Shown: positions 23,701 through 63,846 of the stretch, piece by piece | How the letters are laid out: every line of letters starts with the position of its first letter | Position numbering within the stretch: the stretch's first letter is position 1 | DNA from: a virus | Strand: one strand, 5' to 3' | DNA length: 64,000 bases | Virus record (IMG/VR): IMGVR_UViG_3300023184_003179 | Location: 24,587-88,586 of that record | Program-made: the position numbers and the translations under genes | Notes under the pieces: generated by a model | What the model saw: only the letters and a program-made list of their open reading frames with translations | What the model was told of the DNA's origin: nothing | The model's database searches: none

Positions 23701-25065
23701 GGAATTATTATTGTTAAATGCTTGATCATCATCAAATAAAGATAGTGAGCCAGTTGATGCAAGTAGTTGTCCTACTGGTAATGCAGAATTTCCAAGATCT
23801 GAAAGAATTTTTTTAACATTATATTCAATAACTTTATCTGATATATCTACTACTAGTCTTGGAGACATTTCAATTAAATCAAACGTAGACTCAAACTTAT
23901 TCATTCTTTCTACTGCTACTCTTATTCCACGAATATTTTGAAACTCTCTATACACTACATTTCCATTTATACCTTCTTTAAAATATGCAGGATTTGTAAG
24001 TTCTTTTACAAAGGTTGTTTTATTATCTATTTCTTCATTTCCAAGTATCCAGCCATAGGCAGGGACAAAGTTTTCATACTCATTAGTTGTTCCGTTCCAA
24101 ATATAAAAAGTTCCAACATCTTCATTATTTTCAATTACTAAATAAGAATATCCAGTTATTGAAACTGTTGGAAGCAAAGTACTAGAAGACAGCGTTTCTG
24201 CAAAAACAAATGAATCTTTAAAGTTATCTGGGATGTTTGTTAATCCATATTGCAATTCAACATATCCATCATTTTTAACTATTTGACTTCCGTCTTCACG
24301 CAAATCATTTTCATTAAATACATATGCATCTGTCCAGTTATCTCCATTTAAATACTGAACTCTCCATCTTGTTGGAGTTGTTTTGTTGTTGTCTCCATAA
24401 AATGGATCTGCAAATGTTTTTGAAATATCTGTAAAAGTACCAAGATCAATATCCCCAACATTAGTTTGCATTTTAACAATAATTCTATTTGCTGGAACGT
24501 TTTCTTTATAAACTACAAATGGAACTGCATCATCTATGTAGTAATTACCATTGACTGTTATGTTTGCAATGCCACGCTCTGTACCAGATTCAGTTCTAAA
24601 AGATGTCCAGTATTTAAATTGATCATCTCTGGATGGCATGTAATATCTTGGTCGTCTTGCAAGATTGCTGCCAGAATTTGATAAATACTTTCCATTAAAA
24701 AATGTTGCTTTATTAATACCAGATCTTGGTCTAAATGGTTTAACGCAGTCTTCTAGTGAGTATAAAAGTTTAAGTTTTTCTTTTTTTGATGTAAATGCTT
24801 TGGGGGTTCCATTATTTTCAAAACCACCATCAACAATAACATCTGCATCTGTTGCTGCTGTATAAAAATTTCCAGTATCAGCATTATCAAATGTATTAAA
24901 AAGTGTTAAGAACTGAGAGTTTTGTTCTTGTGGTCTATATCTGTAGTTACCAAGTTTATAAATATTATCTGGCATATTCATATTCCACTCAGCAAGAACT
25001 AATGACTGAGTTTGAATTGTTGCTGATGTTTCAAAGTGATTTTTTAATTCTGTACTTTCAAACAT
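20752..25065 (-). CDS. Large tail-tip/baseplate hub protein
   Basis: 1437 aa, second gene after the tape measure; FFDEYNNF and ANPIIQLGDII motifs of Tal/hub proteins. Confidence 0.75.
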   Translation of the reverse strand: MFESTELKNHFETSATIQTQSLVLAEWNMNMPDNIYKLGNYRYRPQEQNSQFLTLFNTFDNADTGNFYTAATDADVIVDGGFENNGTPKAFTSKKEKLKLLYSLEDCVKPFRPRSGINKATFFNGKYLSNSGSNLARRPRYYMPSRDDQFKYWTSFRTESGTERGIANITVNGNYYIDDAVPFVVYKENVPANRIIVKMQTNVGDIDLGTFTDISKTFADPFYGDNNKTTPTRWRVQYLNGDNWTDAYVFNENDLREDGSQIVKNDGYVELQYGLTNIPDNFKDSFVFAETLSSSTLLPTVSITGYSYLVIENNEDVGTFYIWNGTTNEYENFVPAYGWILGNEEIDNKTTFVKELTNPAYFKEGINGNVVYREFQNIRGIRVAVERMNKFESTFDLIEMSPRLVVDISDKVIEYNVKKILSDLGNSALPVGQLLASTGSLSLFDDDQAFNNNNSTSIVKDYIRKNIKFNFYEKILNVEGFDYWVPIKTLYSDGFPQADVTAGTLQLQLRDFYFFLESMPAPRILTTETSLSYAISLLLDYIGFSNYIFYREENEPEPIIPFFFIAPDQTVAEVLNQLAVSTQSAMFFDEYNNFVMMSKNYMLPTSREADMTLSGSNNQSQSGIIENQTSGTLPNIISIASEDKKVYNNGKINYTSRYIQRSYGSIRQASMIDKEKTWIYKPALLWEVSGTDSTKTINEVASKQGKYVLGAMPLNSDLPAIAPIIVNHSVINNIIDLGENVYWLTRYQGYFYSNGEIIKYDAAEFNVTGIGNVWITSNQDYQNYFKSIPFNGKIYPTGLIRIYTVPYYETIDGITRLQNGAVSEHGRAQFGTEIAEHTAGINSYWSNNDYVRGCEMQSQYLFTTTLLENLSLPATSIGAAGINDTKARQASRGGTIKNFMSSSHITETEVNSNLSTQSGTIQSSALVINGPSFTTTETPINLVSYVYKELDNAYKHFGTRIRIVGKIENNENRSQTPTGSVTYYQVPGVQPDQNVSIGGGSGGMAVLLNPQTNNGYYFEIVALTEENINSYLKLDNQGQSDISINNVVFYKIKKDSSNNNAIPVKLWGGLSKIIVDDGRFTGQYRTTGEENPTVYDLAVEYEDIGKIRRFYLYINNKLIKVVDDTDPLPTYNNMATFVRGSSRCMFENVYALSENYSQNTVFTVGETISSAFGDKVIDADESFRKYGMSGIIKSTYLSGISSQQPPKYNMYFEEFGSIMRECAYFDIKYDRAYPALYAQLSPTFNRIKGYTTSGFYADSYGAEFLIFNSTDTALNLDETTGNYLRIQGITFTQDTTHELTVDNYFKKRGNLSSPELTGSSLVTSSLVLKEKFDKIKLSRMIYGNNEFTLETPYIQTQDDAESLMGWLTDKLMEPKKSIGIKIFANPIIQLGDIINIDYKNSDGVDLVTSDTSKFVVYNIDYTRKINGPDMTLYLAEV

Positions 25066-25701
25066 TTATACTTCTTCCAGCGTTACCGATATATTCCAAA
25101 GATCGTGATTATTTGCTCCACGCTTTACAACAGAATAGTTAAAGTCTGCAAAATAAACTTGAATTATTTGATTATATCTGTTTAAAGCATTATATTGATA
25201 ATTTTGTCCTTCAAGATTTTTATATTTATCATATGCTAAATACATCCAGAATGGTCCTTGATGATTTTCATACCAATCAAGAAGTTCTCCTCCACCTGCT
25301 CCACCATCTGCAGTATACTCATCTGTTGTTCTTATATTTGGGGATAATCCTGTTGTTTCGCTATACCCTGGCAAACCAGAATATCCTCTTGATGGAAGCA
25401 TATTCCAAGATACTGACATATTTAGTTTATCTGCAATATGATAAGAGCGCATGCGACCGTTAATTGTTCTTTGGCGCTCTTCAATTCTTTGATTATTAAA
25501 CTGCATCTCTCCTCTATTATGGTCAGATAATATAATGAATTGGTCTAATAGGTCTGTGTCAGTTTCTTCAGTTGTTGCTCCAACCTCTATGCCATTAGGT
25601 ACGTATAAGCCATTGGAGAGGGTTCCAGCGTTGTTTGCCCATAGAATGCTCTGTGGTCTAGAGTATCTTTTTCTACCCGTTAAATATGCGCTTGTGGCCA
25701 T
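25066..25701 (-). CDS. Distal tail (Dit-like) protein
   Basis: Immediately after the tape measure; RTINGRMRSY...WNISVTLEEV. Confidence 0.7.
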   Translation of the reverse strand: MATSAYLTGRKRYSRPQSILWANNAGTLSNGLYVPNGIEVGATTEETDTDLLDQFIILSDHNRGEMQFNNQRIEERQRTINGRMRSYHIADKLNMSVSWNMLPSRGYSGLPGYSETTGLSPNIRTTDEYTADGGAGGGELLDWYENHQGPFWMYLAYDKYKNLEGQNYQYNALNRYNQIIQVYFADFNYSVVKRGANNHDLWNISVTLEEV

Positions 25702-28700
25702 TATCTACGTTGCCCCCTAATTCTTTGTGCATCAACATTTTTAATTTGTGTCATAACTGCTCTAGCAATGTCATTAGCATTTGAACTATTTCCATTAATG
25801 TTAAAGCCTAAACTATAATTATACACTGCTGTAGAGTTATCACTTACTGAACTAGATACATTATTTATTGGGGCACCGTAACCTGAACTTCCTGCTCCAA
25901 TCATTGATGGATATTTAGATTCATTAAGTGATTTAAGTAATGGACCAAATCTCTTAGATGCTGCTTTATTTACAACAAATTCTCCAGGGGTTAACATTGT
26001 AGGAACTGAGTCAGATCCTATTCTTCCACCACTTGCAAAATATTCAGGAACCATTCCACCCATAGACATTGCTTTTATTTTTCCACCGTACATTCTGTCA
26101 TTAATTCTAAATCCAGTAAATGGACTATCTGTCGTTGTTGATGCTTTAGTTGTTGAAGCAGTAGGAGCAGTTGGTGCTGTACCAGTAACATAGTTTGTTG
26201 TAATTGTAATTACTTTGTTATTTATTTGTTTCCATGCTGCAAGTATTCCTTCGGCTGCAGTTTTTGCTTCTTTTATATTTTCCTTTGTAAATTCAAGTTG
26301 TGCATTTGCAGCCTCTATTTTAATTCTATTTGCTTCCCATTTATCAGCAGTTTCACCAAGGTATGTAACGCTCTCAACAATCTTATCTGTATATGCGTTA
26401 TAATCCTTAAGTGTTTGTGATGTACTATCAACTATTTTTTGATTTGGAATTAATGAATTTTGTTTAACTGTATAGATCTGCTGCTCAATTGCATAGTTCT
26501 TATCTTGAATAACTGTAATCTGATCTTGTAAAACTTTTTTCTGTTGTTCAAGTAAAAATGTTTGTTGTCCAATTTGATATGTACGTGCTTCAATTTGATC
26601 TTTAGTCATACCACCAGCAGTTAATCCAGTAAGTGCTGCTTGGCGTGATGCTTCCATAGATTTTTGCTGTTGATCTATTCTTGCTGCTGCTGATGCTGCA
26701 CGTGCTTCTTGTACTGCTACTGCTGCTGCAGAAATATCTCCAGACGTTAATGCATCTGCAATTGTAAGTCTTGATTTTTCCTGTGCTGCAAGTTCTTGAT
26801 TAAGTGATGATATTTTTTCAAGAGCATCAATTTGTGCATCATACTGTTTGTTAATACTGTCTTCTTGTTTACGAATAATGTCAAGATTATTATTTAATAT
26901 TGTTGACTCATCTTGTAACTTTTGAATTGGTCTATCATAGTTAAGTTCAATTTTGCGATTTAATAAATCTGCTTCATGATTATTTGCATCAATTAGTTCT
27001 TGCTTAGCGTCAATTTCTTTTTGTGCAGCATCTACTGCTTTTTGAGCATTGTCAATTTTTGACTGTAATAGATCTGCTTCTGACTTTCTTTGACGTCTAA
27101 TCAATGCTTCTTGTGAATCAAAGAAGTTTTTAATAATTGCATAGGCCTTATTGTATTTTTCTATATTTGTTATTTTTTCAGTGGAAGTTCCTGCATTTTT
27201 TGCTGCGGTTGCCATTTGCTCTAAAAACTTAGTTGCTAAATTGATTTGTGGATTAAGTTCATTTTTTACTCTTCCTGCAGTACGTTGTGTTGCTCCATCC
27301 CATTTTCCAGTTTCTGTAGAAGCAGCAGCAAGTGCATTAATCATACTTTCTGTTACTGTAATTCCAAGGGAAGCAGCCTTTAAAATAAGTATTTGATCTG
27401 CAACATTTTTAATTTTTACTGCTGCTTTTGCAAGTTCTGAAGGTAAAGATTTCATTAAATTTGACATTAAAAATAGTGCTTCAGGCTTTGGCATTGCTTT
27501 GATACTTGCAGATATTCCATCAAATGATTGACTAAATTGTTCTGCATTAATAGTACCAGATCGTAGTTGTGTGTCAAGGCTCATAAACGTATTTTGAAGT
27601 ACATTTGAAACTGTTGCTAAATTCTTTTTTAGGTCTTTGCTTAAAACTTCTACTTCTTTTACTACTCCTCCACCACGACCTGACCCTACATAAATTTTAG
27701 TTTTTGCGTATCCTTTATTAAACGCAGATTGATAATCTTTTAGCAATGTATCTACAGAACTTTGTAGTCCAGCCCGTCCTTCTTTTGTATTTAAATCAAT
27801 ACTCTTTAAATCAAATTTAACATCAGTTCTTCCTGCTTCTTGCTGTAGTGTATAAATAAAATTATTTATTGCTTCTTTTGTTGCTCCTTGTCCAGCAAGT
27901 CTTAGTGCTAATGATTTAAATACAATATCTGTAGTTTTTTTATCTGTAACAAAGTTATTGTTTTTATCTTTAGCACCCAATGTTTTAACTTGTGCTTTAA
28001 ATTCTTTATCTGTTTGTAGCAATTTTCTTGTTTCTTCAACTTGTTTACTTTGTTGTGGAGTGAGACCAGATACTGCTGGTTTAGCCAATTCTAAATTACT
28101 TTTAAGTGGAGTAAAGTTTAGTATTCCTCCAAGTTTTTCAATTTGTCCAGAAGATAAATTAGCAGCCTTGCCAAGACCTTCAATTGATTGACGTTCTTTT
28201 TCTCTAAGGGCGTTAGTTATTTTTATAATTCCATACATTCCTGCCAAACCACCAGCAACCAATTTAAGTGGACCTGGAAGCATCATGATTGCTTGTGCAG
28301 CAAATGCAATACCTGAAGCCTGTCCAGCAATGTTTCCTGCTGTTCCTGGAAGCATAGATGCAGCCATTCCTACACCCATCATTCCCATGCTAGCCTTCAT
28401 TGGATTAACATTTTTTAATCTTCCAAGTACGCTTGGCTTTTGTGTTGTTCCACCCATCATTCCCATTACCTTTGGACCTATAGCCATTTCTTGTTCAAGG
28501 TTTTTATATTTTAATTGTTTCTCTAATTGTCTACGGATAGACTTTGTAACAGGATCAATTCCACCTGTTGTTCCATACAAATTTGTTTTTGAAAGTGTTG
28601 CAATATCTGCAATTTTTGCTGCTTCAGTTTGTAGAGGTGTTTCTCCTTGTTTTAATCCAGTAAGAAGTCCACCAATAATATTTTTTCCAAGTCGCATAGT

Positions 28701-31700
28701 ACGTTTTGAATCGGAATGAGTTTCTGCTTTTTTTTCTAATGCAGAAAGCATTTCTTCCATTCCTGCAACACCTTGCAATTTAAGTTTTTTTACAAAACTA
28801 GATTGTCCTCTATATGTTGCTAATGCAAGATTTCTTTTAGCCAATGCTAATTCTTGTGGAGTTCTAGAACCAACACCTGGGCTTGCAGGTCCCATTGCAG
28901 CACGAGCACCTGCTGCTGCTAATGCGCCTTTTGCTGTTGTTGCAAGTCCTGCAGACGTTGTTTTCATAAGGGCAGTATCTGCAAGCATTTCTTTTAATAC
29001 TTTTGCTTGTATCTGTAATTCATCTTCAGTTAATGCAAGATTTTTTGTAATTTTTTCTTGAAGAACATTTTTTTCTTGATCTGTTGCATCTACTTTAGAT
29101 AATGCAGTTAGATATGCTTTTTGATTTCTTTCATATGTAAGAGATTGGCTTAATTCATTTTCAGCGTGGGTTTGAACAACAAATGCATTTTCTTGCCATG
29201 CTTCACCATATCTTTTTTCTGCATTTACAATTTCAATAACATGTGCTCTGTCAATTTGAAGTGCCTCATTTAGTTTGCTGCCAGTAATACCAAGGTTTTG
29301 ATATTCTTTATATACTGCTTCTGCTGCAGCATTTGCTCTTGCTACTTCTTCTGCACCTGCAGCGCCACGGCTTGCCATTTGTTCTGGAATACTTGCTGTA
29401 ATTCCAGCCTTTTTTGCACTATATTTTCTTGCTCCAACAACTGATTCTTTTAATTGTACATTTTCTAAAGAATGAGTTACAATATCTAATTCTTTTATAA
29501 ATGATCTAAAACTAACTTTAGAATCATCTGCAACTCTAACTAATGTTTCTGCAACTATACCTTCTGCATCGGTTAACTCTGTTCCTCCAGACAAAATTTT
29601 ATTAATTACTGATTGTATTTGTCCAAGCGCTCCAGCAGAATTAAAATTCATTTCAACTGCTTTTCCACCTACATTTAATGTACCTTTTGCATATCTACTT
29701 GCAACCTTGCCAGAAAATAATGATGCAAGTAATCCCATATTTTCTTTAGCAATACCTTTTGGAACAACCACTTCTCCAGGTGTAAGCATTGCTGGAACTG
29801 TGTCTCCATTTCCAGATCCTGGAACAACACCACCCTTTGCAAACTTTTTACGTCCCTTGATTGGCATCATCATTCCTGGATTTGCCATTGCAAAACTTGA
29901 TGAAGCCTTAATAGCGGATTCATAAGCAAGAACAAGTTGTTTAACTGCTGATGTTTCTGCTGTAAATGTTTGTGTTAAATTAGCATGTGTTTGATTAAGA
30001 GAGTGTGCTGCTGCTGCAGCATCTAACTGTTCCATAGTCATGTACTGTGTTTGTTCACCAAGAACTTGTGTTTGACCAGTTAATCTTAGATATCCACCAC
30101 GAAGAGTTAAAAATAATTTTATAATGTTTGCAAGACCATTAGCAAGCAAGCCAAATGTCATAAGAAGTATTGGTCCTGCAGCACCTATTCCTACTGTTAG
30201 CAGGGTAATTACTTTTTTTGTTCCGTCTGAAAGTTTGCCAAATTTTTCAAGAATATTTCCAACAAATTCAACTATTGGAGTTGCTGCTTGTAAAAATGCC
30301 TGGCCAACTGGAACAAGGGCTACCTTTAAATCTTCAACGCTCTTTTTAAATTTATTCATTGCAGAGTCAGCAGTCATTCCTAATTCTTTTTCAGATAATG
30401 CTGAAAGTTGCTCAACAGAAGCATTTGCTAAATCAAGAACACGAGATGCTTGATTTCCATCTTTTGCTACGTTAGCAAATAATGTTGATAGACGAGCAAA
30501 CTGAAATTTACCAAACATTTGTTCAATTGCTCTTGCTCTTGCCAGTGGATCTAATTTATTTAATGCTTCTGCAAAGCCAATAACTGTTGCTTTAAGATCA
30601 CCTTTATTGTTATCAACAATAGCCTTTGCATTAATTCCATATGATGCAAGCATATCTGATGCTTTTTTAGTTGGATTGATTAAAGATGCAAGACCAGATT
30701 TAAGTGCGTTAGCGCCTTCTGATGCATTTATTCCACCTTCTTTCATTGCTGTTAAGAAGAATGCAAGATCTTTTACGTTACCACCTAATTGTTGAATTAC
30801 TGGAGCAACTTTTGGAATTGCTGTTGTAATATCATCAAGAGATGTTACAGTTTGGTTTTCTACAGCGTTTAAAAAATCAATATTAGATGCAAGATCTTGT
30901 GATGAAATACTAAAAGCATTTTGTAATGCAATAGTTGTTTGAAGAGCCTGTTGCTGATCAATTTGACCAAGAACAGCAAGCCTTGTTGCTTCTTTAGTTT
31001 GTGCTTGTAAATCTAATCCTTGAAAACCTGCTGCTGCTGCATCTGCTGCAAGTCCTACCGTTTGAGATGCTGCAACACCATATTTTGTAAATGAGTTGGC
31101 AAGTTCTTTAACTCCAGCAAGTGCTTCGTTACTTTGTGCTGGAGTTGTAAATAAATCTCCATAAACTTTTCTAAATTTTAATGCTTGAGTTTCCATATCC
31201 ATAAAGGCTTTTGATGCAGTGCTTCCAAATGCAACTAATGGAAGAGTAAAACCAACCATCAACTGACGACCAGCCCACTGTGTATTTTTACCAAAATTTA
31301 AAAGATTGGTAGATCCTTGTTTCATTAATTGATTAAATAATGCTTGTTTTTGTGCTGTTAATTGAACCTGTGTTCCATAATCATCCATATTAAGTTGAGT
31401 TGGCATAATAGCCATTGCTTTCATTGTGCCGTTTGTATCACGGCCCATTTTAATATATTGTGTTTGTAGTCTTTTTACACGTTCTTCTGCTACTTTGCCA
31501 ATTGTGTCAAACTCTGTTTTAAACAGACGACCAAATGTTTTTGTTGATGCTCCCGCATAACGGAAGTATTCTCGCATTGAAAATTTGTTTGACTCTAATG
31601 CATGCGTAAATGATTCTGCAGATGTTTTAACTGTTCGCATCTCGGCTGAAAAAGCACCGATAGAATTTATACTACTTAAAAGATTTTTTTGTAAACTTTT

Positions 31701-31838
31701 TTGTGCAAGTGCTGCCGTTTCACTTGATTTGGCTATTGAGGTATGGAACTGTGCAATCTGTCGTTGGAGAGATTTTAACTGTGCTAATGCAGCAGATGAA
31801 TCAATATTAATGTCAATATTTGCATTAACATCAGCCAT
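25701..31838 (-). CDS. Tape measure protein
   Basis: 2045 aa, Ala-rich helical, TP901-type region (EGGINASEGANALKS), hydrophobic segments, coiled coil, two F..GG...D.VP.MLTPGE.VV motifs. Confidence 0.93.
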   Translation of the reverse strand: MADVNANIDINIDSSAALAQLKSLQRQIAQFHTSIAKSSETAALAQKSLQKNLLSSINSIGAFSAEMRTVKTSAESFTHALESNKFSMREYFRYAGASTKTFGRLFKTEFDTIGKVAEERVKRLQTQYIKMGRDTNGTMKAMAIMPTQLNMDDYGTQVQLTAQKQALFNQLMKQGSTNLLNFGKNTQWAGRQLMVGFTLPLVAFGSTASKAFMDMETQALKFRKVYGDLFTTPAQSNEALAGVKELANSFTKYGVAASQTVGLAADAAAAGFQGLDLQAQTKEATRLAVLGQIDQQQALQTTIALQNAFSISSQDLASNIDFLNAVENQTVTSLDDITTAIPKVAPVIQQLGGNVKDLAFFLTAMKEGGINASEGANALKSGLASLINPTKKASDMLASYGINAKAIVDNNKGDLKATVIGFAEALNKLDPLARARAIEQMFGKFQFARLSTLFANVAKDGNQASRVLDLANASVEQLSALSEKELGMTADSAMNKFKKSVEDLKVALVPVGQAFLQAATPIVEFVGNILEKFGKLSDGTKKVITLLTVGIGAAGPILLMTFGLLANGLANIIKLFLTLRGGYLRLTGQTQVLGEQTQYMTMEQLDAAAAAHSLNQTHANLTQTFTAETSAVKQLVLAYESAIKASSSFAMANPGMMMPIKGRKKFAKGGVVPGSGNGDTVPAMLTPGEVVVPKGIAKENMGLLASLFSGKVASRYAKGTLNVGGKAVEMNFNSAGALGQIQSVINKILSGGTELTDAEGIVAETLVRVADDSKVSFRSFIKELDIVTHSLENVQLKESVVGARKYSAKKAGITASIPEQMASRGAAGAEEVARANAAAEAVYKEYQNLGITGSKLNEALQIDRAHVIEIVNAEKRYGEAWQENAFVVQTHAENELSQSLTYERNQKAYLTALSKVDATDQEKNVLQEKITKNLALTEDELQIQAKVLKEMLADTALMKTTSAGLATTAKGALAAAGARAAMGPASPGVGSRTPQELALAKRNLALATYRGQSSFVKKLKLQGVAGMEEMLSALEKKAETHSDSKRTMRLGKNIIGGLLTGLKQGETPLQTEAAKIADIATLSKTNLYGTTGGIDPVTKSIRRQLEKQLKYKNLEQEMAIGPKVMGMMGGTTQKPSVLGRLKNVNPMKASMGMMGVGMAASMLPGTAGNIAGQASGIAFAAQAIMMLPGPLKLVAGGLAGMYGIIKITNALREKERQSIEGLGKAANLSSGQIEKLGGILNFTPLKSNLELAKPAVSGLTPQQSKQVEETRKLLQTDKEFKAQVKTLGAKDKNNNFVTDKKTTDIVFKSLALRLAGQGATKEAINNFIYTLQQEAGRTDVKFDLKSIDLNTKEGRAGLQSSVDTLLKDYQSAFNKGYAKTKIYVGSGRGGGVVKEVEVLSKDLKKNLATVSNVLQNTFMSLDTQLRSGTINAEQFSQSFDGISASIKAMPKPEALFLMSNLMKSLPSELAKAAVKIKNVADQILILKAASLGITVTESMINALAAASTETGKWDGATQRTAGRVKNELNPQINLATKFLEQMATAAKNAGTSTEKITNIEKYNKAYAIIKNFFDSQEALIRRQRKSEADLLQSKIDNAQKAVDAAQKEIDAKQELIDANNHEADLLNRKIELNYDRPIQKLQDESTILNNNLDIIRKQEDSINKQYDAQIDALEKISSLNQELAAQEKSRLTIADALTSGDISAAAVAVQEARAASAAARIDQQQKSMEASRQAALTGLTAGGMTKDQIEARTYQIGQQTFLLEQQKKVLQDQITVIQDKNYAIEQQIYTVKQNSLIPNQKIVDSTSQTLKDYNAYTDKIVESVTYLGETADKWEANRIKIEAANAQLEFTKENIKEAKTAAEGILAAWKQINNKVITITTNYVTGTAPTAPTASTTKASTTTDSPFTGFRINDRMYGGKIKAMSMGGMVPEYFASGGRIGSDSVPTMLTPGEFVVNKAASKRFGPLLKSLNESKYPSMIGAGSSGYGAPINNVSSSVSDNSTAVYNYSLGFNINGNSSNANDIARAVMTQIKNVDAQRIRGQRR

Positions 31839-31859
31839 TTAGTTCCATACCTCTTTAAA

Positions 31860-32189
31860 TTATTCAGCCATAGTTACGCCAAGAACGTCTGAAACTTCAG
31901 CAAGTTTTACACCTGATGCTGCTTCAACAATCTTGTAAACAGTTGGAAGATCAACAATCTCTTCTAACTTTGAAACGTCTTCTGAGAGTTCTGGCTTATA
32001 TTGTTTCATTGCAATCTGAACACATTCCATAAGAATGTCCATAGATTTTTCATTGTTATCCGCCACTGCTCCCACACCCTCAAACTTCTTCATAAATGGA
32101 CGAAGTAGAGAGATTTTTAGAGGACGTACTGTAACCTTTGTGCCATCAATTAGCGTAAGAATTTGTTCCTCATGCGTAGTTGTTGCCAT
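31860..32189 (-). CDS. Tail assembly chaperone, short (G-like)
   Basis: 109 aa directly before the tape measure; paralog of the N-terminal half of 32232..32927; SD AGGAGG. Confidence 0.75.
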   Translation of the reverse strand: MATTTHEEQILTLIDGTKVTVRPLKISLLRPFMKKFEGVGAVADNNEKSMDILMECVQIAMKQYKPELSEDVSKLEEIVDLPTVYKIVEAASGVKLAEVSDVLGVTMAE

Positions 32190-32214
32190 TATTTCCTCCT
32201 ATAGGTTAATAGCA

Positions 32215-32223
32215 ATTATAGCA
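32215..32223 (-). promoter_or_regulatory. Extended -10 promoter TGCTATAAT for the short chaperone
   Basis: Consensus TGnTATAAT upstream of the AGGAGG SD and ATG 32189. Confidence 0.65.
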
Positions 32224-32231
32224 TAGAAACG

Positions 32232-32927
32232 CTATTTTCTAAGGTCTTCATAATCAAGACCCATACCAATTCCAAACCCTGCTTGCCTTGCATTTTGTCC
32301 TTGAAGTGCTAAGATATCATTGCTATCATTTGTTGCACCTTTACTGAATACTCTTGCCTTTAAATCTTCCCATTCTTTTTGTCCCCTGCTAGATCCAGCC
32401 TCTTTATCTAAATCTACACCCTGAATTGCTGCAAGAAATTTTTTCTCTTCATAATCAAGTTCTCTACGACTTGATAGAGTTGCCATTAGTTCTGGCATAG
32501 ATAATGATTCTTCTAATTCTTTATAATCTTTCCAAATACCCAATAAAAAAACCTCAGATTCTATTTTTGCAAGATCCAAGTCTGACCATGTTGCTCCACT
32601 ATCTGTTGCTTGATCCTTTACAGGCTCTTCTGATTTTTGATTAATTTTAATTCCAGCAGAAACATCTAATATTTTATAAATTGTTGGCATATCAAAACTA
32701 TCTTCTACGGCTTCTTTTGTTTTTGATATTTCTGGATAGTATTGTTTCATTGCTATTCTTACACACTCAACCAAATTCTCTATGGCTTCGTCATCATTTT
32801 TTGTTAATTTAACATCTTCAAACGCCTCCATAAATTCACGTAAATATTTTATTTTTAATGGAGTTATTTCTAATTCTGAACCATCAATTAGATTTATTAT
32901 TTTACTTTGATAAACAGTTGTTGCCAT
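32232..32927 (-). CDS. Tail assembly chaperone, long (G-T-like in-frame fusion)
   Basis: N-terminal G paralog plus C-terminal WSDLDLAKIESEVFLLGIWKDYKELEESLSMPEL domain; lies between major tail and tape measure genes. Confidence 0.75.
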   Translation of the reverse strand: MATTVYQSKIINLIDGSELEITPLKIKYLREFMEAFEDVKLTKNDDEAIENLVECVRIAMKQYYPEISKTKEAVEDSFDMPTIYKILDVSAGIKINQKSEEPVKDQATDSGATWSDLDLAKIESEVFLLGIWKDYKELEESLSMPELMATLSSRRELDYEEKKFLAAIQGVDLDKEAGSSRGQKEWEDLKARVFSKGATNDSNDILALQGQNARQAGFGIGMGLDYEDLRK

Positions 32928-32936
32928 AATCTTTCT

Positions 32937-32945
32937 ATTCTATCA
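32937..32945 (-). promoter_or_regulatory. Extended -10 variant TGATAGAAT
   Basis: 9 nt before ATG 32927, no SD; near-leaderless. Confidence 0.5.
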
Positions 32946-32950
32946 TAAAC

Positions 32951-32982
32951 AAAACAAAAAACCCACCTCGTTAGAAGTGGGT
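32951..32982 (-). terminator. Rho-independent terminator after the major tail gene
   Basis: ACCCACTTC-TAAC-GAGGTGGGT followed by TTTTTGTTTT. Confidence 0.85.
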
Positions 32983-33004
32983 CTTTAGTTAATCTAAAGT
33001 TAGA

Positions 33005-33637
33005 TTATGACTGTCCCCAAGTACGATCTACGATCTTACCATAGGATCCAGATGTGTCTTCAGGAAGAAGACGGAATGAAACTTCAAACATTGACGCTTC
33101 GTCACGTTTAGCAGATACTGTTACATTTTCAATTGAAAGTGCACGGTATGCTGTGTAAACACGCTCAATAGAGTCAGATGCATCACAGTCTCCAGTTCCT
33201 GGTCCAACTGCAACAATTCCTCGTTCTACTGGACATTCTCCAAGTTCACCTGCAGATAGATTAAGTGTCTGACCTGTAGATGCTGCCTTGTTTCCTGTAA
33301 GTTGTGTATCTTTGAATGCTAGTGCAAGAAGCAAGTTTTCTAGTGTTGCTTCAGCAAAAGCGGTAGCAAGATTAACCTGCATACCTTGCTTATATAGTTT
33401 TGCAACGTCAAGAATCTGATCAACTGCAACCTCACCGAAATCAGGTTGGAATTGTAGTTCAAGACCGTTCATGGTGTAACCTACGTTGGTGTAATCTGCT
33501 TGTGCTGAAAGCGTAGTCTTAAAAGACTCGCTTGAATCAAAACCTTCCAGTGTACCTGGAGTAAGTGTTGTATCCGCAACAAAAAGTGCTGCTGCACCAA
33601 CGATAATGTTATTTGACGTACCACGGCTATATGGCAT
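33005..33637 (-). CDS. Major tail tube protein
   Basis: NIIVGAAALF...VGYTMNGLEL...EATLENL...FEVSFRLL; SD GAGGTG; precedes the chaperones. Confidence 0.85.
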   Translation of the reverse strand: MPYSRGTSNNIIVGAAALFVADTTLTPGTLEGFDSSESFKTTLSAQADYTNVGYTMNGLELQFQPDFGEVAVDQILDVAKLYKQGMQVNLATAFAEATLENLLLALAFKDTQLTGNKAASTGQTLNLSAGELGECPVERGIVAVGPGTGDCDASDSIERVYTAYRALSIENVTVSAKRDEASMFEVSFRLLPEDTSGSYGKIVDRTWGQS

Positions 33638-33709
33638 ATTTGTTCACCTCTTTCATAAAGTATTATTAAGTTGTTTGGCGTGTTTCCTCAAAACTAATTA
33701 TACTGCCTT

Positions 33710-34279
33710 TTATGTATATCTAGAATCGGCCTCTGTTTTTATATGGTAGTCATACTCAACAATAATCTTATTGACAAAAAGGGTTCTTGCTGAGGCTAAC
33801 TCTGCAACGTCTCTACTTTCATCTGCTTGATAGACCCTAGTGTTGTGAAAGAAGATGTTGTATGGAATTGTATCCCCTTGAGAGTTTAGGACTGGATTTG
33901 CAATAGCCCAGGAGTTGATATCTTGCGCTGATGAATCTTCACGATCAAGGGCATTAGATATTACACGAACAGAGTCTATCAATTTTCCAACATCTGTTGA
34001 ATACAAGAAATATATTAATTGTTCTCTTTTACGAGCATAGAATGGCGTTGGCCTAAACCTCATAAGTCTGTCATACACAACCAACAGTGGACTTTCTGTT
34101 TGTCTTATTACAATGTTGTCATTGTATAAATCTTCAATGTTTGTTGGAAACTGTGCTGGAACCATTGGGCTTGGATTAAGTAGGTCTGCTTCAGCAATTA
34201 AATTATAATGAGCCAATTCTGAAAGAATGTATCCATTTAAAAATGTTGGTGGAAATCCAGTATCTGTTAATATAGTCAT
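33710..34279 (-). CDS. Probable tail terminator/completion protein
   Basis: Position just before the major tail gene. Confidence 0.6.
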   Translation of the reverse strand: MTILTDTGFPPTFLNGYILSELAHYNLIAEADLLNPSPMVPAQFPTNIEDLYNDNIVIRQTESPLLVVYDRLMRFRPTPFYARKREQLIYFLYSTDVGKLIDSVRVISNALDREDSSAQDINSWAIANPVLNSQGDTIPYNIFFHNTRVYQADESRDVAELASARTLFVNKIIVEYDYHIKTEADSRYT

Positions 34280-34283
34280 AGGT

Positions 34284-34961
34284 CTATTCTACTCCAATTG
34301 TTGCATTGGCAATCCATTTAAATCCAGTTTCAATACCTTTGCTTCTTCCCATTCTTGATCCAGATTTTAGATTCTTTTTATATAATGTTGGTTTTTTAAT
34401 ATATTCATAAAGTCCAGATGCTTTTAAAAATGATTGTTTAAAATATCTTGAAATAAAAATATCAACTGTTGATTCAAAACTGCCAAATACTGCATCTCCT
34501 CCTGGAGAATCAACTTTAATTGGTTTCTTAGTAAAAACATCTCCATTTGGACCACTAAATTTTAAAACTTGTGATCTAGTAGGTGAAATTGTAACTGGAA
34601 TTCCATTTTCCATAATCTTGGCTTTATTATAAAAAGGCACTGTCATGTTTTCTGATACACTTCTTGATTGTCTAAATGTAGAGTTAATTGATAGTCCAAG
34701 ATTGCTAACTGTATAATTAAGATCAAACAACCTAGATGTAGGGCTTCCAGTTTGATTCCATTCATAAACGTGATGTAATGCTTTTGGATTAGATCTTGCC
34801 TCAACATCAACGTATTGAGCAAGGGCCTGTATTACACCTTTGCCAAGTTTATCAAGAAATATTTTTTTACCTTTTTGAACTCCTTCTAAAAAACCAAAGG
34901 AATAATTAACTATGTTATTCATTTGCATTTCAAAACTTTTAGAGTTCATTGTGACTATCAT
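34284..34961 (-). CDS. Head-tail/neck (tail completion) protein
   Basis: Basic protein (LHHVYEW) in the neck position. Confidence 0.55.
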   Translation of the reverse strand: MIVTMNSKSFEMQMNNIVNYSFGFLEGVQKGKKIFLDKLGKGVIQALAQYVDVEARSNPKALHHVYEWNQTGSPTSRLFDLNYTVSNLGLSINSTFRQSRSVSENMTVPFYNKAKIMENGIPVTISPTRSQVLKFSGPNGDVFTKKPIKVDSPGGDAVFGSFESTVDIFISRYFKQSFLKASGLYEYIKKPTLYKKNLKSGSRMGRSKGIETGFKWIANATIGVE

Positions 34962-35410
34962 TAGTCGCCTACCGTTTGATTCTCAGTTCTGCGCCAGAGC
35001 ATTTTATAATATTCTATATTTCCAAATGGCCCAGTAAAAGGCTCTACAGTTGCTATTTCATAAATAGTTCCTCTACCAGATCTAGCGCCTGCAGTTTCTT
35101 TATATATAACCAAATCATTTGCGGTTCTGATGTTTGTAATCAGTATGTTCGTTATTGCATTGTATGAACCATTAGATGATAGTCTTGGATCATTACTTGT
35201 TCGTGCAATTAGTTTATTTTCATATTGCAAAAATGCTTCTGGCTTTATATCTTCAGTTCCTGCTCCCCCTACTGGTGTTGCATTACATATAATTGTTCTG
35301 TCGTATACCCAGTCTTTTTTAGGTTGTCCATAGTCGCCTTGGGCAAGGATTGGAAAATATATATCTGCCTTCATTGGATACATGAAATCTGTAATTTCAC
35401 ATACAGTCAT
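34961..35410 (-). CDS. Head-closure (stopper) protein
   Basis: Beta-rich; GDYGQPKKDW...IYEIATVEP; position. Confidence 0.6.
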   Translation of the reverse strand: MTVCEITDFMYPMKADIYFPILAQGDYGQPKKDWVYDRTIICNATPVGGAGTEDIKPEAFLQYENKLIARTSNDPRLSSNGSYNAITNILITNIRTANDLVIYKETAGARSGRGTIYEIATVEPFTGPFGNIEYYKMLWRRTENQTVGD

Positions 35411-36396
35411 TACAACACTCCAGGACGAACAATATTATTAACATATTTAGACAAAATCTTGTCTACAATAATATTTCCAGTACCCTCAATCATTCTCTTA
35501 TCATATTCAATCTTAAATTGATCAGTACTATAATTCTTTACATATCTTTTATAGTAATCTAATTTCCCACACTTAATATCATCAATTAACAGTTTAGTTG
35601 CATCTTGAATATCAATGGGTACAACTTTATATCCAGTTTCAAGTAAGAAAATATAGTCTGTACCTTGTTGGAATCCTACACCAGGGGTAATTGTCTGTGT
35701 GTTTCCGCTGTCTCCTGTATCAAATAATGCGTATGAGTCAGAGACTGCCAAAGGAATTCTTGATGGGCGTCTTTCTGCTCTATTTAATGAGTCTGTTGCT
35801 TGAACAGGATCTTTTGTAATTGCTGTTTTATCTTTTGTGATAATATAATTAAAGTCTCCAAGTGCTGGACCATCTGCGTCACTTGTATCATATACTAGTT
35901 CTGCATTTTCATATGCCTTTAAAATTTTATGTGTTCTATCCCAAAGAGGAATATAGTCTGTTTCTTGTCCTACAACTTCTAGGTAATTACGTCTATAATA
36001 AAATCCATTAACTATTGAATCAATAATTGCTCTAGCCAAAAATTCGTGTTGTTTATATTCTGCTATTTCTGTTGCTGTTGTTCCTAAAGTATTTGGATCA
36101 ACATATGGACGTTCAATCTGTAGATTGTCTTCAATAACAATATCTCCACGTTCGCCATCAATGTCTTCATATACTGTTACAGAATAAGACTTATCATATT
36201 TTACAAAGTCTCCAGACAGGGTGTATGTTATGGTTCCTTCTGATGAAGATGTTTGTCCAGACTCTCCACTGACAAACACTTCAAGTTCTGTTTGCTCTGG
36301 TACGTCTTCAATAACAAGTATGTAATCTGCTGACTCATCTGGAACTGTATAGGTTACAGAAAGCGGGTATGGTGGAATGCGAAGAATGACTGACAT
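35410..36396 (-). CDS. Head-to-tail adaptor
   Basis: ARAIIDS...GYKVVPIDIQDAT...TGNIIVDKILSKY. Confidence 0.7.
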   Translation of the reverse strand: MSVILRIPPYPLSVTYTVPDESADYILVIEDVPEQTELEVFVSGESGQTSSSEGTITYTLSGDFVKYDKSYSVTVYEDIDGERGDIVIEDNLQIERPYVDPNTLGTTATEIAEYKQHEFLARAIIDSIVNGFYYRRNYLEVVGQETDYIPLWDRTHKILKAYENAELVYDTSDADGPALGDFNYIITKDKTAITKDPVQATDSLNRAERRPSRIPLAVSDSYALFDTGDSGNTQTITPGVGFQQGTDYIFLLETGYKVVPIDIQDATKLLIDDIKCGKLDYYKRYVKNYSTDQFKIEYDKRMIEGTGNIIVDKILSKYVNNIVRPGVL

Positions 36397-36398
36397 TA

Positions 36399-36752
36399 TT
36401 ATTTACCGTAGTATGAGGCTACTTCTTCAGGCTGTGCAATTCTGACTGCCTTACGAGTAATCCACTTTTCCGATGCCTCCTTTGAGACGATGTTATATCC
36501 CACTTTTACTTCTCCAACCCCATCCCAATAGATGTTTCTATCTGAATAAAGTGCTACCTTTTCAATTGGTGCTTTTTGTTCTGTAACGACTTCTGTTTGT
36601 CCGTTTGGAATAAAACTTGCAATTACTTCTAAAATTTCTAATTTAGTAGATACCCCAAATAGATCAATGTTATTTTTCTTAGCATAAGATTTTAGTTCCA
36701 TTACGGTCTTTTTTGCTAATTCTTCAATTGTCATATAATCTCCCATACTCAT
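36399..36752 (-). CDS. Hypothetical protein with Rho-N/HeH-like N-terminus
   Basis: LAKKTVMELKSYAKKNNIDL...KLEILEVI; preceded by TGGTATAAT at 36758-36766. Confidence 0.6.
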   Translation of the reverse strand: MSMGDYMTIEELAKKTVMELKSYAKKNNIDLFGVSTKLEILEVIASFIPNGQTEVVTEQKAPIEKVALYSDRNIYWDGVGEVKVGYNIVSKEASEKWITRKAVRIAQPEEVASYYGK

Positions 36753-36777
36753 TTGTAATTATACCAGAATATGACTA

Positions 36778-36807
36778 AGGGAGGACAGAAATTAATCCAT
36801 CCTCCCT
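36778..36807 (-). terminator. 3' stem-loop after the major capsid gene (weak U-tail)
   Basis: AGGGAGGATGG-ATTAATTT-CTGTCCTCCCT, 11 bp with two G-U pairs. Confidence 0.7.
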
Positions 36808-36826
36808 CAATCTGGGTGGTCAATGA

Positions 36827-37981
36827 TTACGAATCAGTTGCATCTGCATCTGCATAAGATACAGCGTCTAGTTCTTCCCATTGAATACCAAAACGGACGA
36901 ATACTGTGTATTCAATTGTGTCCTTCTTTGGCTTGTATTCACGGTTTACAGTGATGTCTCTCTGGAATCCCCATACACGGTTTGCTGGGAATGTAAGATC
37001 TACATAACCTGCAGGGTAGTAAGGAACTTCAAGAACATCTACACCTAGTACACGAGTTGTGCGTGAGTTACCAAGTGTTTGTGCATTTCCATCAAGATAA
37101 TCTTGACGGTTTGCTGGTGTTCCTGCTGTACGAGTAGCGAATGCTTCTGCTACTGCATCTGCAAGTGTACCGTTATTCTTAACGATACCTTGGAATGCAT
37201 CTGTACCTGCATAGAACTTAAGATTGCTCTTAATTGCACGATACTTACGTGGCATGGCCAAGATAATGCTTTGCATTGTGGCTGTTGTCCACTCGTTGTT
37301 TGCTACAGTAACTGCTGCTTCGTGAGCATCATTTGCTGCAACTTGGTTTACCTGAGCAACGAAGCCAGGCATAATTGAAAGGAATGCGTCTGCGCCAGTT
37401 CCAGTTCCATTAATCGCAAGATCTTCAATATCGTTAGCAAAAGCATTTGTCATCAAACGAACTAGATGATCTTCAAGTGCTGCACCTTCAATATTGTCTT
37501 CAAGTGATTCTGTAGAAACTTCCCAGTCCAAACGAATCTTCTTTGTTGTGAGTTCTACCTTAGAAAATGTAGCACCAACGTTTGTGTAATCTGGTGCACC
37601 CTGTGCTGCTGCACGGATAACACGCTCTCCAACGTTGACTTTCTCAATTTCCATTGTATTTGCTCGCATAGTGACCTTACGGCCATCTTTGGCGAGAACA
37701 GTTGCATCCCACACGTAGTCAATAAAACGACGTGCTTGTTCAGGTGCTAGAATACCACCAGAGACTCCTGTAGGATTTACGGCATTTGCTCCTGTTGTAG
37801 AACCAAATGCTGCTGTTGCTGTGTTACCAAGTTGTGCTGCTGGACTTACGTTACCGTCAGCATTACGTCCTGTTGCACCACCAACACCACCAGATACTAA
37901 TGCGCCTTGGGAGTTAATTTCTGCTCCTGAGCCACCTGAACCTGGATAGTTTTTTTCTATATTTGTATTTTGTTCCGACAT
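36827..37981 (-). CDS. Major capsid protein (HK97 fold)
   Basis: GGILAPEQARRFID, EDNIEG, DIEDLAINGT; SD AGGAGGTG; follows the protease. Confidence 0.92.
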   Translation of the reverse strand: MSEQNTNIEKNYPGSGGSGAEINSQGALVSGGVGGATGRNADGNVSPAAQLGNTATAAFGSTTGANAVNPTGVSGGILAPEQARRFIDYVWDATVLAKDGRKVTMRANTMEIEKVNVGERVIRAAAQGAPDYTNVGATFSKVELTTKKIRLDWEVSTESLEDNIEGAALEDHLVRLMTNAFANDIEDLAINGTGTGADAFLSIMPGFVAQVNQVAANDAHEAAVTVANNEWTTATMQSIILAMPRKYRAIKSNLKFYAGTDAFQGIVKNNGTLADAVAEAFATRTAGTPANRQDYLDGNAQTLGNSRTTRVLGVDVLEVPYYPAGYVDLTFPANRVWGFQRDITVNREYKPKKDTIEYTVFVRFGIQWEELDAVSYADADATDS

Positions 37982-38008
37982 ATTGTTCACCTCCTAGTGA
38001 TATATACC

Positions 38009-39319
38009 TTAGTTAAATAGGTCGGTATTTGTGAGGAAACGACCGCCCCATAGGGATTTTTGAACCACTTGTGGTGATTCCTGTACGATCTCGCCTAGAT
38101 CGCCAGACTTGCGGAAAGCGGTGTCTTGTTCTACAAGATCTACTCGCTTGCCAAACTCGTTAAAGTTACTCTTAATGCCATTAACATCAGATGTTACTGT
38201 ATCAAGAGACTTTGTTACTGCTGCTACCTGCTCATTAAGAGACTTAATAGTTGCAGCAAGATCGCCAAAGGCATTAGTAAGAGAAGCATTAATTTCTGAA
38301 ACTGCTTTAGCAACTTCTTCTTTAACTTCTGAAACGGCGTCAACCACTGCTTCTTCTGCTTTCTCTACTTCTACTGCTGCTTCTTCAGCAACAGGAGAAT
38401 CTGCACCGCCGTCAACTGCTTCTGCTGCAGGTGCTTCAATAGCAACTGCAACTTCTTCAGCAACTGCAGGAGTCTCTACAACTTCTGCTGGTTGTGCCTC
38501 TGGAGCAACCTCTGCATTTTCAACTACAGCGTCTACGGCTGCTTCTGTTGATTCTGTCATGGGATTTACCTCCTTAGTAATCTTAATTGTACTAATGCCT
38601 TTAGCACTATCAACTAAGAATTTTATCATTTCTGTATTTTCTTTATCATTTTTTTCTACAAAACCTATGTTCTGCATCTTATTACCATTGGTTGGGCTTA
38701 CTGCTGATTCAGCATCTGATACCATTACAATACCGCTTTCTGAATCCCAAAATACATTTTCAACTTCTGCTTTTGATAAATATCCACTAACAACATTTTG
38801 TCCATTTACTTTTTCAATAGATACAATGTTGGCAAATTGGTTTGCTGGATTATCTACCAAAGAAAGTTCATGTAGTTCATAATTCTTAATTACACGGATT
38901 GATTTATCTATTTTTTCATCATAGGCATCGTCCCATGTCTTAATATTTCCACCGATTGAAAAACCAGTATAGGTTCCATCCAGAACCTTTTCCCATGCAT
39001 CTTGTGCACCCTTTGAAACGTATGCAGATACATAGACTCCGCTGTAAAACTTCTTATCGTTTGGATCAAAATATTTATCTTCTTTAAATGAAACAATTTT
39101 TCCAACGGCTGATGGTTGGTGCATTTCACGAAGGTTTCCACGGAAGTTTTTAAATGCTTCAACGCTGGATTCTGTTGTTACAATATCGCCCTGCTTATCA
39201 ACGTTATCAAGCGTTGCAAATCCTGACACCATACGGCGTTCAACGTCTATTTTTCCAATGGGCATTGAGAGACGAACATTGTCACCTTCAGTTACCCAAT
39301 GAGCCTTGTTTGTTAACAT
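38009..39319 (-). CDS. Prohead protease fused to scaffolding domain
   Basis: VSGFATLDNVDKQGD, REMH, GFSIGG, ELSLVDNPAN; Glu/Ala-rich linker and coiled coil. TGCTATAAT at 39329-39337. Confidence 0.9.
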   Translation of the reverse strand: MLTNKAHWVTEGDNVRLSMPIGKIDVERRMVSGFATLDNVDKQGDIVTTESSVEAFKNFRGNLREMHQPSAVGKIVSFKEDKYFDPNDKKFYSGVYVSAYVSKGAQDAWEKVLDGTYTGFSIGGNIKTWDDAYDEKIDKSIRVIKNYELHELSLVDNPANQFANIVSIEKVNGQNVVSGYLSKAEVENVFWDSESGIVMVSDAESAVSPTNGNKMQNIGFVEKNDKENTEMIKFLVDSAKGISTIKITKEVNPMTESTEAAVDAVVENAEVAPEAQPAEVVETPAVAEEVAVAIEAPAAEAVDGGADSPVAEEAAVEVEKAEEAVVDAVSEVKEEVAKAVSEINASLTNAFGDLAATIKSLNEQVAAVTKSLDTVTSDVNGIKSNFNEFGKRVDLVEQDTAFRKSGDLGEIVQESPQVVQKSLWGGRFLTNTDLFN

Positions 39320-63706: not shown

Positions 63707-63846
63707 AATAAGATTATTATATCATTGTATGAGATTAAATTTTTGCGGGAATTAGTAAAGCCGAAAATAGAGATACCAAACCAACATATGACATAATACT
63801 AATGCTACGCATTTAAATAATGTCTAACTGGATGTAATATCTATGT

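Follow-up and report, generated by a model that had tools for sequence, protein, structure and literature searches.

The frameshift that yields the tail assembly chaperones G and G-T is among the most conserved recoding events in viruses, and it is usually explained as the device that sets the ratio of two proteins sharing a domain. Its conservation in long-tailed phages is reported to have been described by Xu, Hendrix and Duda in 2004, and Xu et al. reportedly found in 2013 that lambda could be complemented with G and GT from separate genes. In lambda, according to the relevant passages of PMC5009743, the G to G-T ratio of about 30:1 matters, with G binding the tape measure and T binding the tube. 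Passages of PMC10885494 (citing Vladimirov, Gautam and Davidson 2022, Virology 566:9) describe some T4-like phages with a short chaperone gene and a fused long gene, and passages of PMC7302621 and PMC11659878 describe Microbacterium cluster EA phages, e.g. subcluster EA1, with two separately expressed chaperone genes. Here we analyzed the tail assembly chaperone locus in a 64,000-nt stretch of viral DNA (positions 24,587 to 88,586 of IMG/VR virus record IMGVR_UViG_3300023184_003179, hereafter the window, meaning the whole stretch) and found two separate genes at the place where a frameshift cassette would be expected. We consider it likely, with a probability of roughly 0.8, that the clade of this phage has swapped the -1 programmed frameshift for these two genes, with G-T scarce and G abundant. 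As judged from alignments with its relatives, gene 1 is shown to be an in-frame fusion of G to T with the junction at the former slip site, and gene 2 is shown by the same comparisons to be a diverged G-only paralog with the promoter, leader and Shine-Dalgarno (SD) layout of the single G of frameshift-type relatives. The features of the pair are as follows.

32232..32927, minus strand: gene 1, fused G-T tail assembly chaperone gene, 231 aa plus stop (open reading frame (ORF), homology, dN/dS)
about 32628..32927, minus strand: G domain of the G-T gene, aa 1-100
aa 101-109 of the G-T protein: linker
about 32235..32600, minus strand: T domain of the G-T gene, aa 110-231
32937..32945, minus strand: extended -10 element for G-T, TGATAGAAT, with 9 nt between its end and the ATG; no SD, leaderless or near-leaderless type
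31860..32189, minus strand: gene 2, G-only tail assembly chaperone paralog, 109 aa plus stop (ORF, homology, dN/dS)
32215..32223, minus strand: extended -10 element for the short G, TGCTATAAT, within the 42-nt spacer that follows the G-T stop
32195..32200, minus strand: SD AGGAGG of the short G gene, 5 nt before the ATG

An earlier note on this DNA, made from its letters alone, had proposed the same pair, and both the ORFs and the domain split in PHROGs confirm it; all that the note stated of the sequence holds. Between residues 1-100 of the long protein and the short protein, 44 of 101 aligned positions are identical (44%, E 5e-31), close to the count of about 43 of 96 that had been made by hand. 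The long protein matched phrog_10504 (residues 1-100, 2e-23) and then phrog_10474 (residues 131-222, 2e-14), and the short protein matched phrog_10504 (2e-20) and, weakly, phrog_1932 'tail assembly chaperone' (E 0.0049). The motifs PLKI, EC..IAMKQY and D.PT.YKI are common to both window copies and to the G of frameshift-type relatives, and the short protein retains the G-type C-terminal tail. The claim that no T frame follows the short gene also stands, because only 21 nt lie between its stop and the ATG of the tape measure gene.

Compared by layout with lambda gpG/gpGT, the locus has the same place between the major tail and tape measure genes (found in the window, in 165 of 169 and in 10 of 14 related loci) and the same short product plus a long one that adds T; the shared N-terminal G is found at gene level, in parts that are paralogous (44%) and not identical. 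The window differs from lambda in that it has no overlap, heptamer or recoding: G and T stand in one frame, no slippery heptamer was found near the G end in either window gene, and there are two genes, the long one first, with separate promoter-like elements. It does carry a two-gene, frameshift-free chaperone as defined for T4-like phages in the passages of PMC10885494. As described there, the logic is the same, and the T4-like phages differ in their contractile tails and other hosts. The Microbacterium EA phages are likened to the window by description as well, and the passages on them are silent on a G-T fusion with a paralogous G. Thus, of the earlier idea of an unprecedented alternative to frameshifting, the two-gene layout is real, but the status as unprecedented was too strong, since the two-gene chaperone is not the first of its kind and is known in T4-like and Microbacterium EA phages. 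An independent origin from the T4-like case is likely, because all cultured matches of the locus are Streptomyces phages and the hosts and tails of T4-like phages differ.

Those cultured matches (127 records by tblastn, all Streptomyces phages) show G and T apart as a two-piece match in all 40 rows among the matches listed, and the fused G-T layout was absent by tblastn from the cultured phages of the collection; megablast of window positions 25000-38000 against cultured phages gave no match. Streptomyces Stanwilliamsviridae (MulchMansion, Coruscant and Circinus; their clusters BE/BK are a naming taken from the earlier note) have the same gene order as the window, with tube proteins 42-45%, G 36-44% and T 37-46% identical, and stretches within annotated Streptomyces phage tape measure genes are 26-31% identical to the N-terminus of the window tape measure. 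They differ in having one G gene with an overlapping -1 T ORF, the two pieces being two annotated ORFs between major tail protein and tape measure, annotated separately or as hypothetical. We examined eight frameshift-type loci, namely MulchMansion (L001), Coruscant (L002), Circinus (L003), the metagenomic locus L086 and L181-184, and in 8/8 of them T lies in the -1 frame of G and overlaps its end, the T frame being open 54-57 nt upstream of the G stop in the three Streptomyces phages. The peptide W..L.L..LE.E.F.LG.WK, which is also in the window long protein, starts upstream of the annotated T ORF start. The heptamer C_CCA_AAN (ending AAT, AAA or AAC) is present in six of the eight loci (L003, L086 and L181-184) and sits directly after a conserved G(I/V)K(L/M)N motif, in the first codons of the stretch where the -1 frame is open; L001 and L002 hold C_CCG_GAA at that place (2/8), which is not canonical and makes a -1 slip at a slippery heptamer doubtful there. 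According to the passage on it in PMC5009743, C_CCA_AAG is highly shift-prone in E. coli. By parsimony the -1 frameshift is ancestral, because L086, the Streptomyces phages and L181-184 all keep it.

In the window, the long gene runs on in frame from the conserved motif (..GIKIN-QKS..), and from residue 99-110 onward its T part can be aligned with the -1 frame ORFs of these relatives (58% identical over the T half to the ORF of L086 and 46% to that of L003), so that the homology of the C-terminal half to the -1-frame T ORF of frameshift-type relatives, both Streptomyces phages and metagenomic loci, is borne out. L086 is closer to the window than the other frameshift-type loci (tube 62-74% identical), and its G is 47% identical to the short G. 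Since the long gene continues in frame from the very motif where the relatives carry the heptamer, we place the fusion at the old slip site; and because the sister lineages still carry that heptamer, the transition can be read almost base by base. The junction itself is A-rich (AAT CAA AAA TCA), and on direct reading it has a five-A run with a -1 frame TAA about 7 codons later, so one could imagine residual recoding, in which a slip there yields a G-like short product and the downstream G is partly redundant. By eye, however, no in-frame X_XXY_YYZ heptamer is present at the junction, the ancestral C_CCA_AAN is gone from both genes, and the separate G is conserved in 160 of the 161 loci long enough to include it, which points to its being needed; we regard residual recoding as highly improbable and reject it. 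As to the cultured records, an unannotated -1 frameshift is probably present in those of MulchMansion, Coruscant and Circinus. Conserved T residues lie upstream of the annotated T start in all three (L001:3288-3345, L002:3288-3345 and L003:3297-3351), with no joined feature, and Circinus has C_CCA_AAT at the conserved site.

The two-gene layout is a property of a whole clade. A scan of the viral contig collection gave 420 related stretches (query P0018 found no relative in the viral-contig scan), and the loci fetched in four scans partly repeat the same contigs, so distinct sequences are given below. Counted besides L084 and L085, which are the window's own genome, 169 loci comprise 165 with G and T in one ORF, the 3 Streptomyces phages and L086, and 14 further loci comprise 10 fused and 4 frameshift-type ones. 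Complete fused G-T ORFs number 173 (225-239 aa; 115 distinct DNA and 105 distinct protein sequences), and they diverge to about 46-50% protein identity across many metagenomes. Wherever a locus extends far enough beyond the fused ORF, a short G comes next (160 intact, 1 broken), and in the remaining loci it is cut off by contig ends. Median pairwise dN/dS (the ratio of nonsynonymous to synonymous substitution rates) was 0.19 for the G part of G-T, 0.33 for the linker, 0.11 for the T part and 0.16 for the short G, values low enough to indicate that both genes are maintained by selection. The gain or loss of one base at the slip site could mimic a fusion in a single contig, and we therefore asked whether an ordinary frameshift cassette had been altered by an indel from assembly or sequencing, a reading for which we found no support. 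It cannot account for the second G gene, nor for an intact layout in 173 complete loci with 115 distinct DNA sequences from many metagenomes and purifying selection on all parts; contigs of DNA run X1 are also identical to the window across the junction, though X1 may be the source sample. The comparative data refute the indel, and its probability is negligible. In six loci the pair is split by a spacer of 776-781 nt (~780), which means that the two genes can be separated.

Two single loci deserve mention here. The sole short G with a frame break (L044:4797-5081) is broken near codon 20, by sequencing error or as a pseudogene, and the sole insert read of the six (L018:4725-5372) holds a 215-aa ORF with an S-adenosylmethionine (SAM)-methyltransferase-like glycine motif between the fused G-T and the short G.

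For the origin of the two copies, we built a tree of 99 G domains on 108 columns, in which the duplication is unrooted; fused N domains and short G were reduced at 85% identity to 43 and 15 sequences, and 33 N-only matches of unknown context were added. All fused N domains fall on one side of a branch with a Shimodaira-Hasegawa-like approximate likelihood ratio (SH-aLRT) of 95, and the short G clade (93) lies across that branch, where it and the frameshift-type G form a polytomy. This topology speaks for a reading in which one copy recombined in from a distant relative and the resident frameshift cassette was then remodelled, as does the short G being nearer to the G of L086 (47%) than to the window's own fused N domain (44%). 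Against such a xenologous origin, the tree with fused N and short G forced into one clade had a higher likelihood (+4.6) and was not rejected by the approximately unbiased test (p-AU 0.587), 108 columns leave the node in question as a polytomy, and MAT(T) at the start and the same motifs occur in both copies, so that we think it unlikely. Because the constrained tree is not rejected, one duplication in the stem of the clade is compatible with the data, and the in-lineage duplication supposed in the earlier note is likewise compatible with the tree, though not proven.

The same tree bears on what the copies do. Where frameshifting forces the two G domains to be identical, here they are 44% identical, each type forms its own conserved group (the fused-N branch at 95 and the short G clade at 93), and both are under purifying selection (omega 0.19 and 0.16). 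It is possible, at somewhat long odds, that the paralogs are subfunctionalised, their G domains binding different tape measure sites or partners, and that they form a two-component chaperone rather than a ratio device. The shared motifs kept in both copies and in the frameshift-type G speak against this, and the conserved contrast in expression signals fits a dosage role; dosage and subfunctionalisation are, however, compatible with each other.

That contrast lies in the flanking elements. Read along the minus strand, the tail tube gene is followed by the terminator, the 231-aa G-T, the 109-aa G and the tape measure, and the neighbouring features are:

36827..37990, minus strand: capsid gene of the late operon, which continues with head-tail genes and then the tail tube gene
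33005..33637, minus strand: major tail (tube) protein gene, 210 aa (ORF; phrog_2175 4e-34, phrog_885 major tail 0.0055)
32957..32986, minus strand: intrinsic terminator hairpin and T tract after the tube gene (13 pairs; compensatory changes)
25701..31838, minus strand: tape measure protein gene, 2045 aa, its ATG 21 nt after the short G stop

The upstream statistics cover loci L004-L171. A terminator between the tube gene and both chaperone genes had been claimed from the window, and the hairpin at 32986..32957, with 13 pairs and a T tail, shows compensatory changes in 8 of 9 consensus pairs among 30 relatives (30 of 89 distinct sequences). The contrast between a long gene with a non-consensus -10 and no SD (TGATAGAAT at 32945..32937) and a short gene with a consensus -10 and AGGAGG (TGCTATAAT at 32223..32215, AGGAGG at 32200..32195) likewise held in the window and throughout the relatives. 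Upstream of G-T, an extended -10 ending 6-9 nt before the ATG, with no SD-like core, was present in 79/79 distinct sequences, its common forms being TGATAGAAT (40), TGGTAAAAT (20) and TGGTAGAAT (13). Upstream of the short G, an extended -10 with TATAAT lies 23-29 nt before the start in 75/75 (TGCTATAAT in 69), and AGGAGG was found in 70 of the 75 distinct upstream sequences, the other 5 having shorter cores; TATAAT thus occurs in 0/79 G-T promoters versus 75/75 short G promoters. In frameshift-type relatives the single G comes with TG(A/C)TATAAT, a leader and an SD, as in the short G (that of L003 has TATAAT without the TG). The short G thus retains the ancestral signals, and those of the fused gene are derived. 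No terminator-like site is listed in the 42-nt spacer between G-T and G in a scan of 25000..39000, therefore a transcript from the G-T promoter can also carry G; on that reading, with G transcribable from both promoters, G RNA can only equal or exceed G-T RNA.

From these elements we propose that little G-T would be made, from an off-consensus extended -10 and a leaderless or near-leaderless mRNA without SD, and much G, for which both promoters would be usable and which would have a consensus -10 and a perfect SD. If lambda is a guide, both G domains would coat the tape measure, the T domain would recruit the tube protein, and both products would leave before the tail is finished. RNA-library contigs from three studies (X15, X16 and X18) cover the short G and the tube gene, and the long gene has next to no contig cover in them; these runs are Logan contigs, from which levels, starts and strands are not readable. 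A gene left uncovered by them is no evidence, so this was given no weight, and it does not conflict with G exceeding G-T.

The promoter of the G-T gene is one of a larger set. The element TGNTANAAT occurs in the window 34 times on the coding strand versus 5 times on the other strand, and 18 of the 34 lie in intergenic DNA, which makes up ~9% of the sequence. Seven of these 18 are of the leaderless type, with TATAAT in six and TAGAAT in that of G-T alone. The seven extended -10 elements, on the minus strand at 63724, 60488, 53430, 52775, 39337, 36766 and 32945, end 3-9 nt from an ATG that lacks an SD. It would thus seem that this phage regularly expresses genes from leaderless or near-leaderless units. 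The genes of abundant proteins, capsid and tube, have AGGAGGTG and AGAGGTG; the tube gene is preceded by a TATAAT-like -10 of its own, with a ~50-nt leader and the SD AGAGGTG.

A host that uses such mRNAs is likely. Lake-water metagenomes of several studies contain the stretch, and a WhiB-family gene (G000:C1:13536-13709, locus L186; 47 bits, above the Pfam cut-off) lies in the same phage record outside the window. These fit an actinobacterial host for a lake-water clade related to Streptomyces Stanwilliamsviridae, which we judge likely from sequence, and therefore the leaderless layout is credible.

Several points weigh against the replacement of the frameshift by a scarce G-T and an abundant G. 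Leaderless mRNAs are common in actinobacteria, where leaderless translation is normal and not necessarily weak, so that the lack of an SD need not mean weak translation of G-T. An output of G far above G-T, set by the strength of promoters and ribosome binding sites, is plausible from the signals but unproven, and the actinobacterial host is itself deduced. With 44% identity between their G domains, the two copies may not be interchangeable. As for the chaperone identity, Pfam gave no family above cut-off for the chaperone proteins, only sub-threshold matches at chance level, and a search of solved structures with a profile of 47 G-T proteins gave one irrelevant match (E 0.39); the identity therefore comes from synteny, annotated homologues, the weak PHROG match and a language-model lead. 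Several Streptomyces phage records label the homologous genes tail assembly chaperone; of the named Atlas clusters, those nearest to the short protein in the language-model look-up (a lead only) are tail assembly chaperones at 0.89-0.91; and phrog_10504 and phrog_10474 are PHROGs without assigned function.

Within the proposed replacement of recoding by two genes, we advance tentatively the idea that uncoupling let the two G domains diverge (44% identity), so that the two products would no longer be one protein with and without T. The G-T could then have become specialised as a nucleator that acts at low dose and has a tape measure site of its own, its dose being set by the conserved off-consensus leaderless promoter nested upstream of the G promoter. 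If this were true, the clade, with frameshifting sister lineages that have the same slip site, would serve as a natural experiment on what makes the G-T frameshift so persistent elsewhere. Searches of the literature yielded no description of the clade or of its chaperone genes. What appears to be new is that a large siphovirus clade provides a further, independent case, that its frameshifting sister lineages show where the junction lies, that the gene order is reversed (long before short), that the promoters are nested, one of them leaderless and the other with an SD, and the extent to which the two G domains have diverged (44% identity). In siphoviruses too, the ratio would in principle be settable by promoters and translation starts, and the locus offers a natural pair of signals, an off-consensus leaderless promoter versus a consensus promoter with an SD.

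Two minor observations concern the tube gene. Immediately past the tube stop and upstream of the terminator comes a perfect, short inverted repeat, AATCTAA. TTAGATT (window 32989-33004, minus strand), which many of the upstream sequences of related loci have at the same place. In L086 (774-2537), two tandem major tail protein paralogs of 226 and 315 residues, stop to stop, were found, the second with an insertion of ~100 residues after the shared N-terminus.

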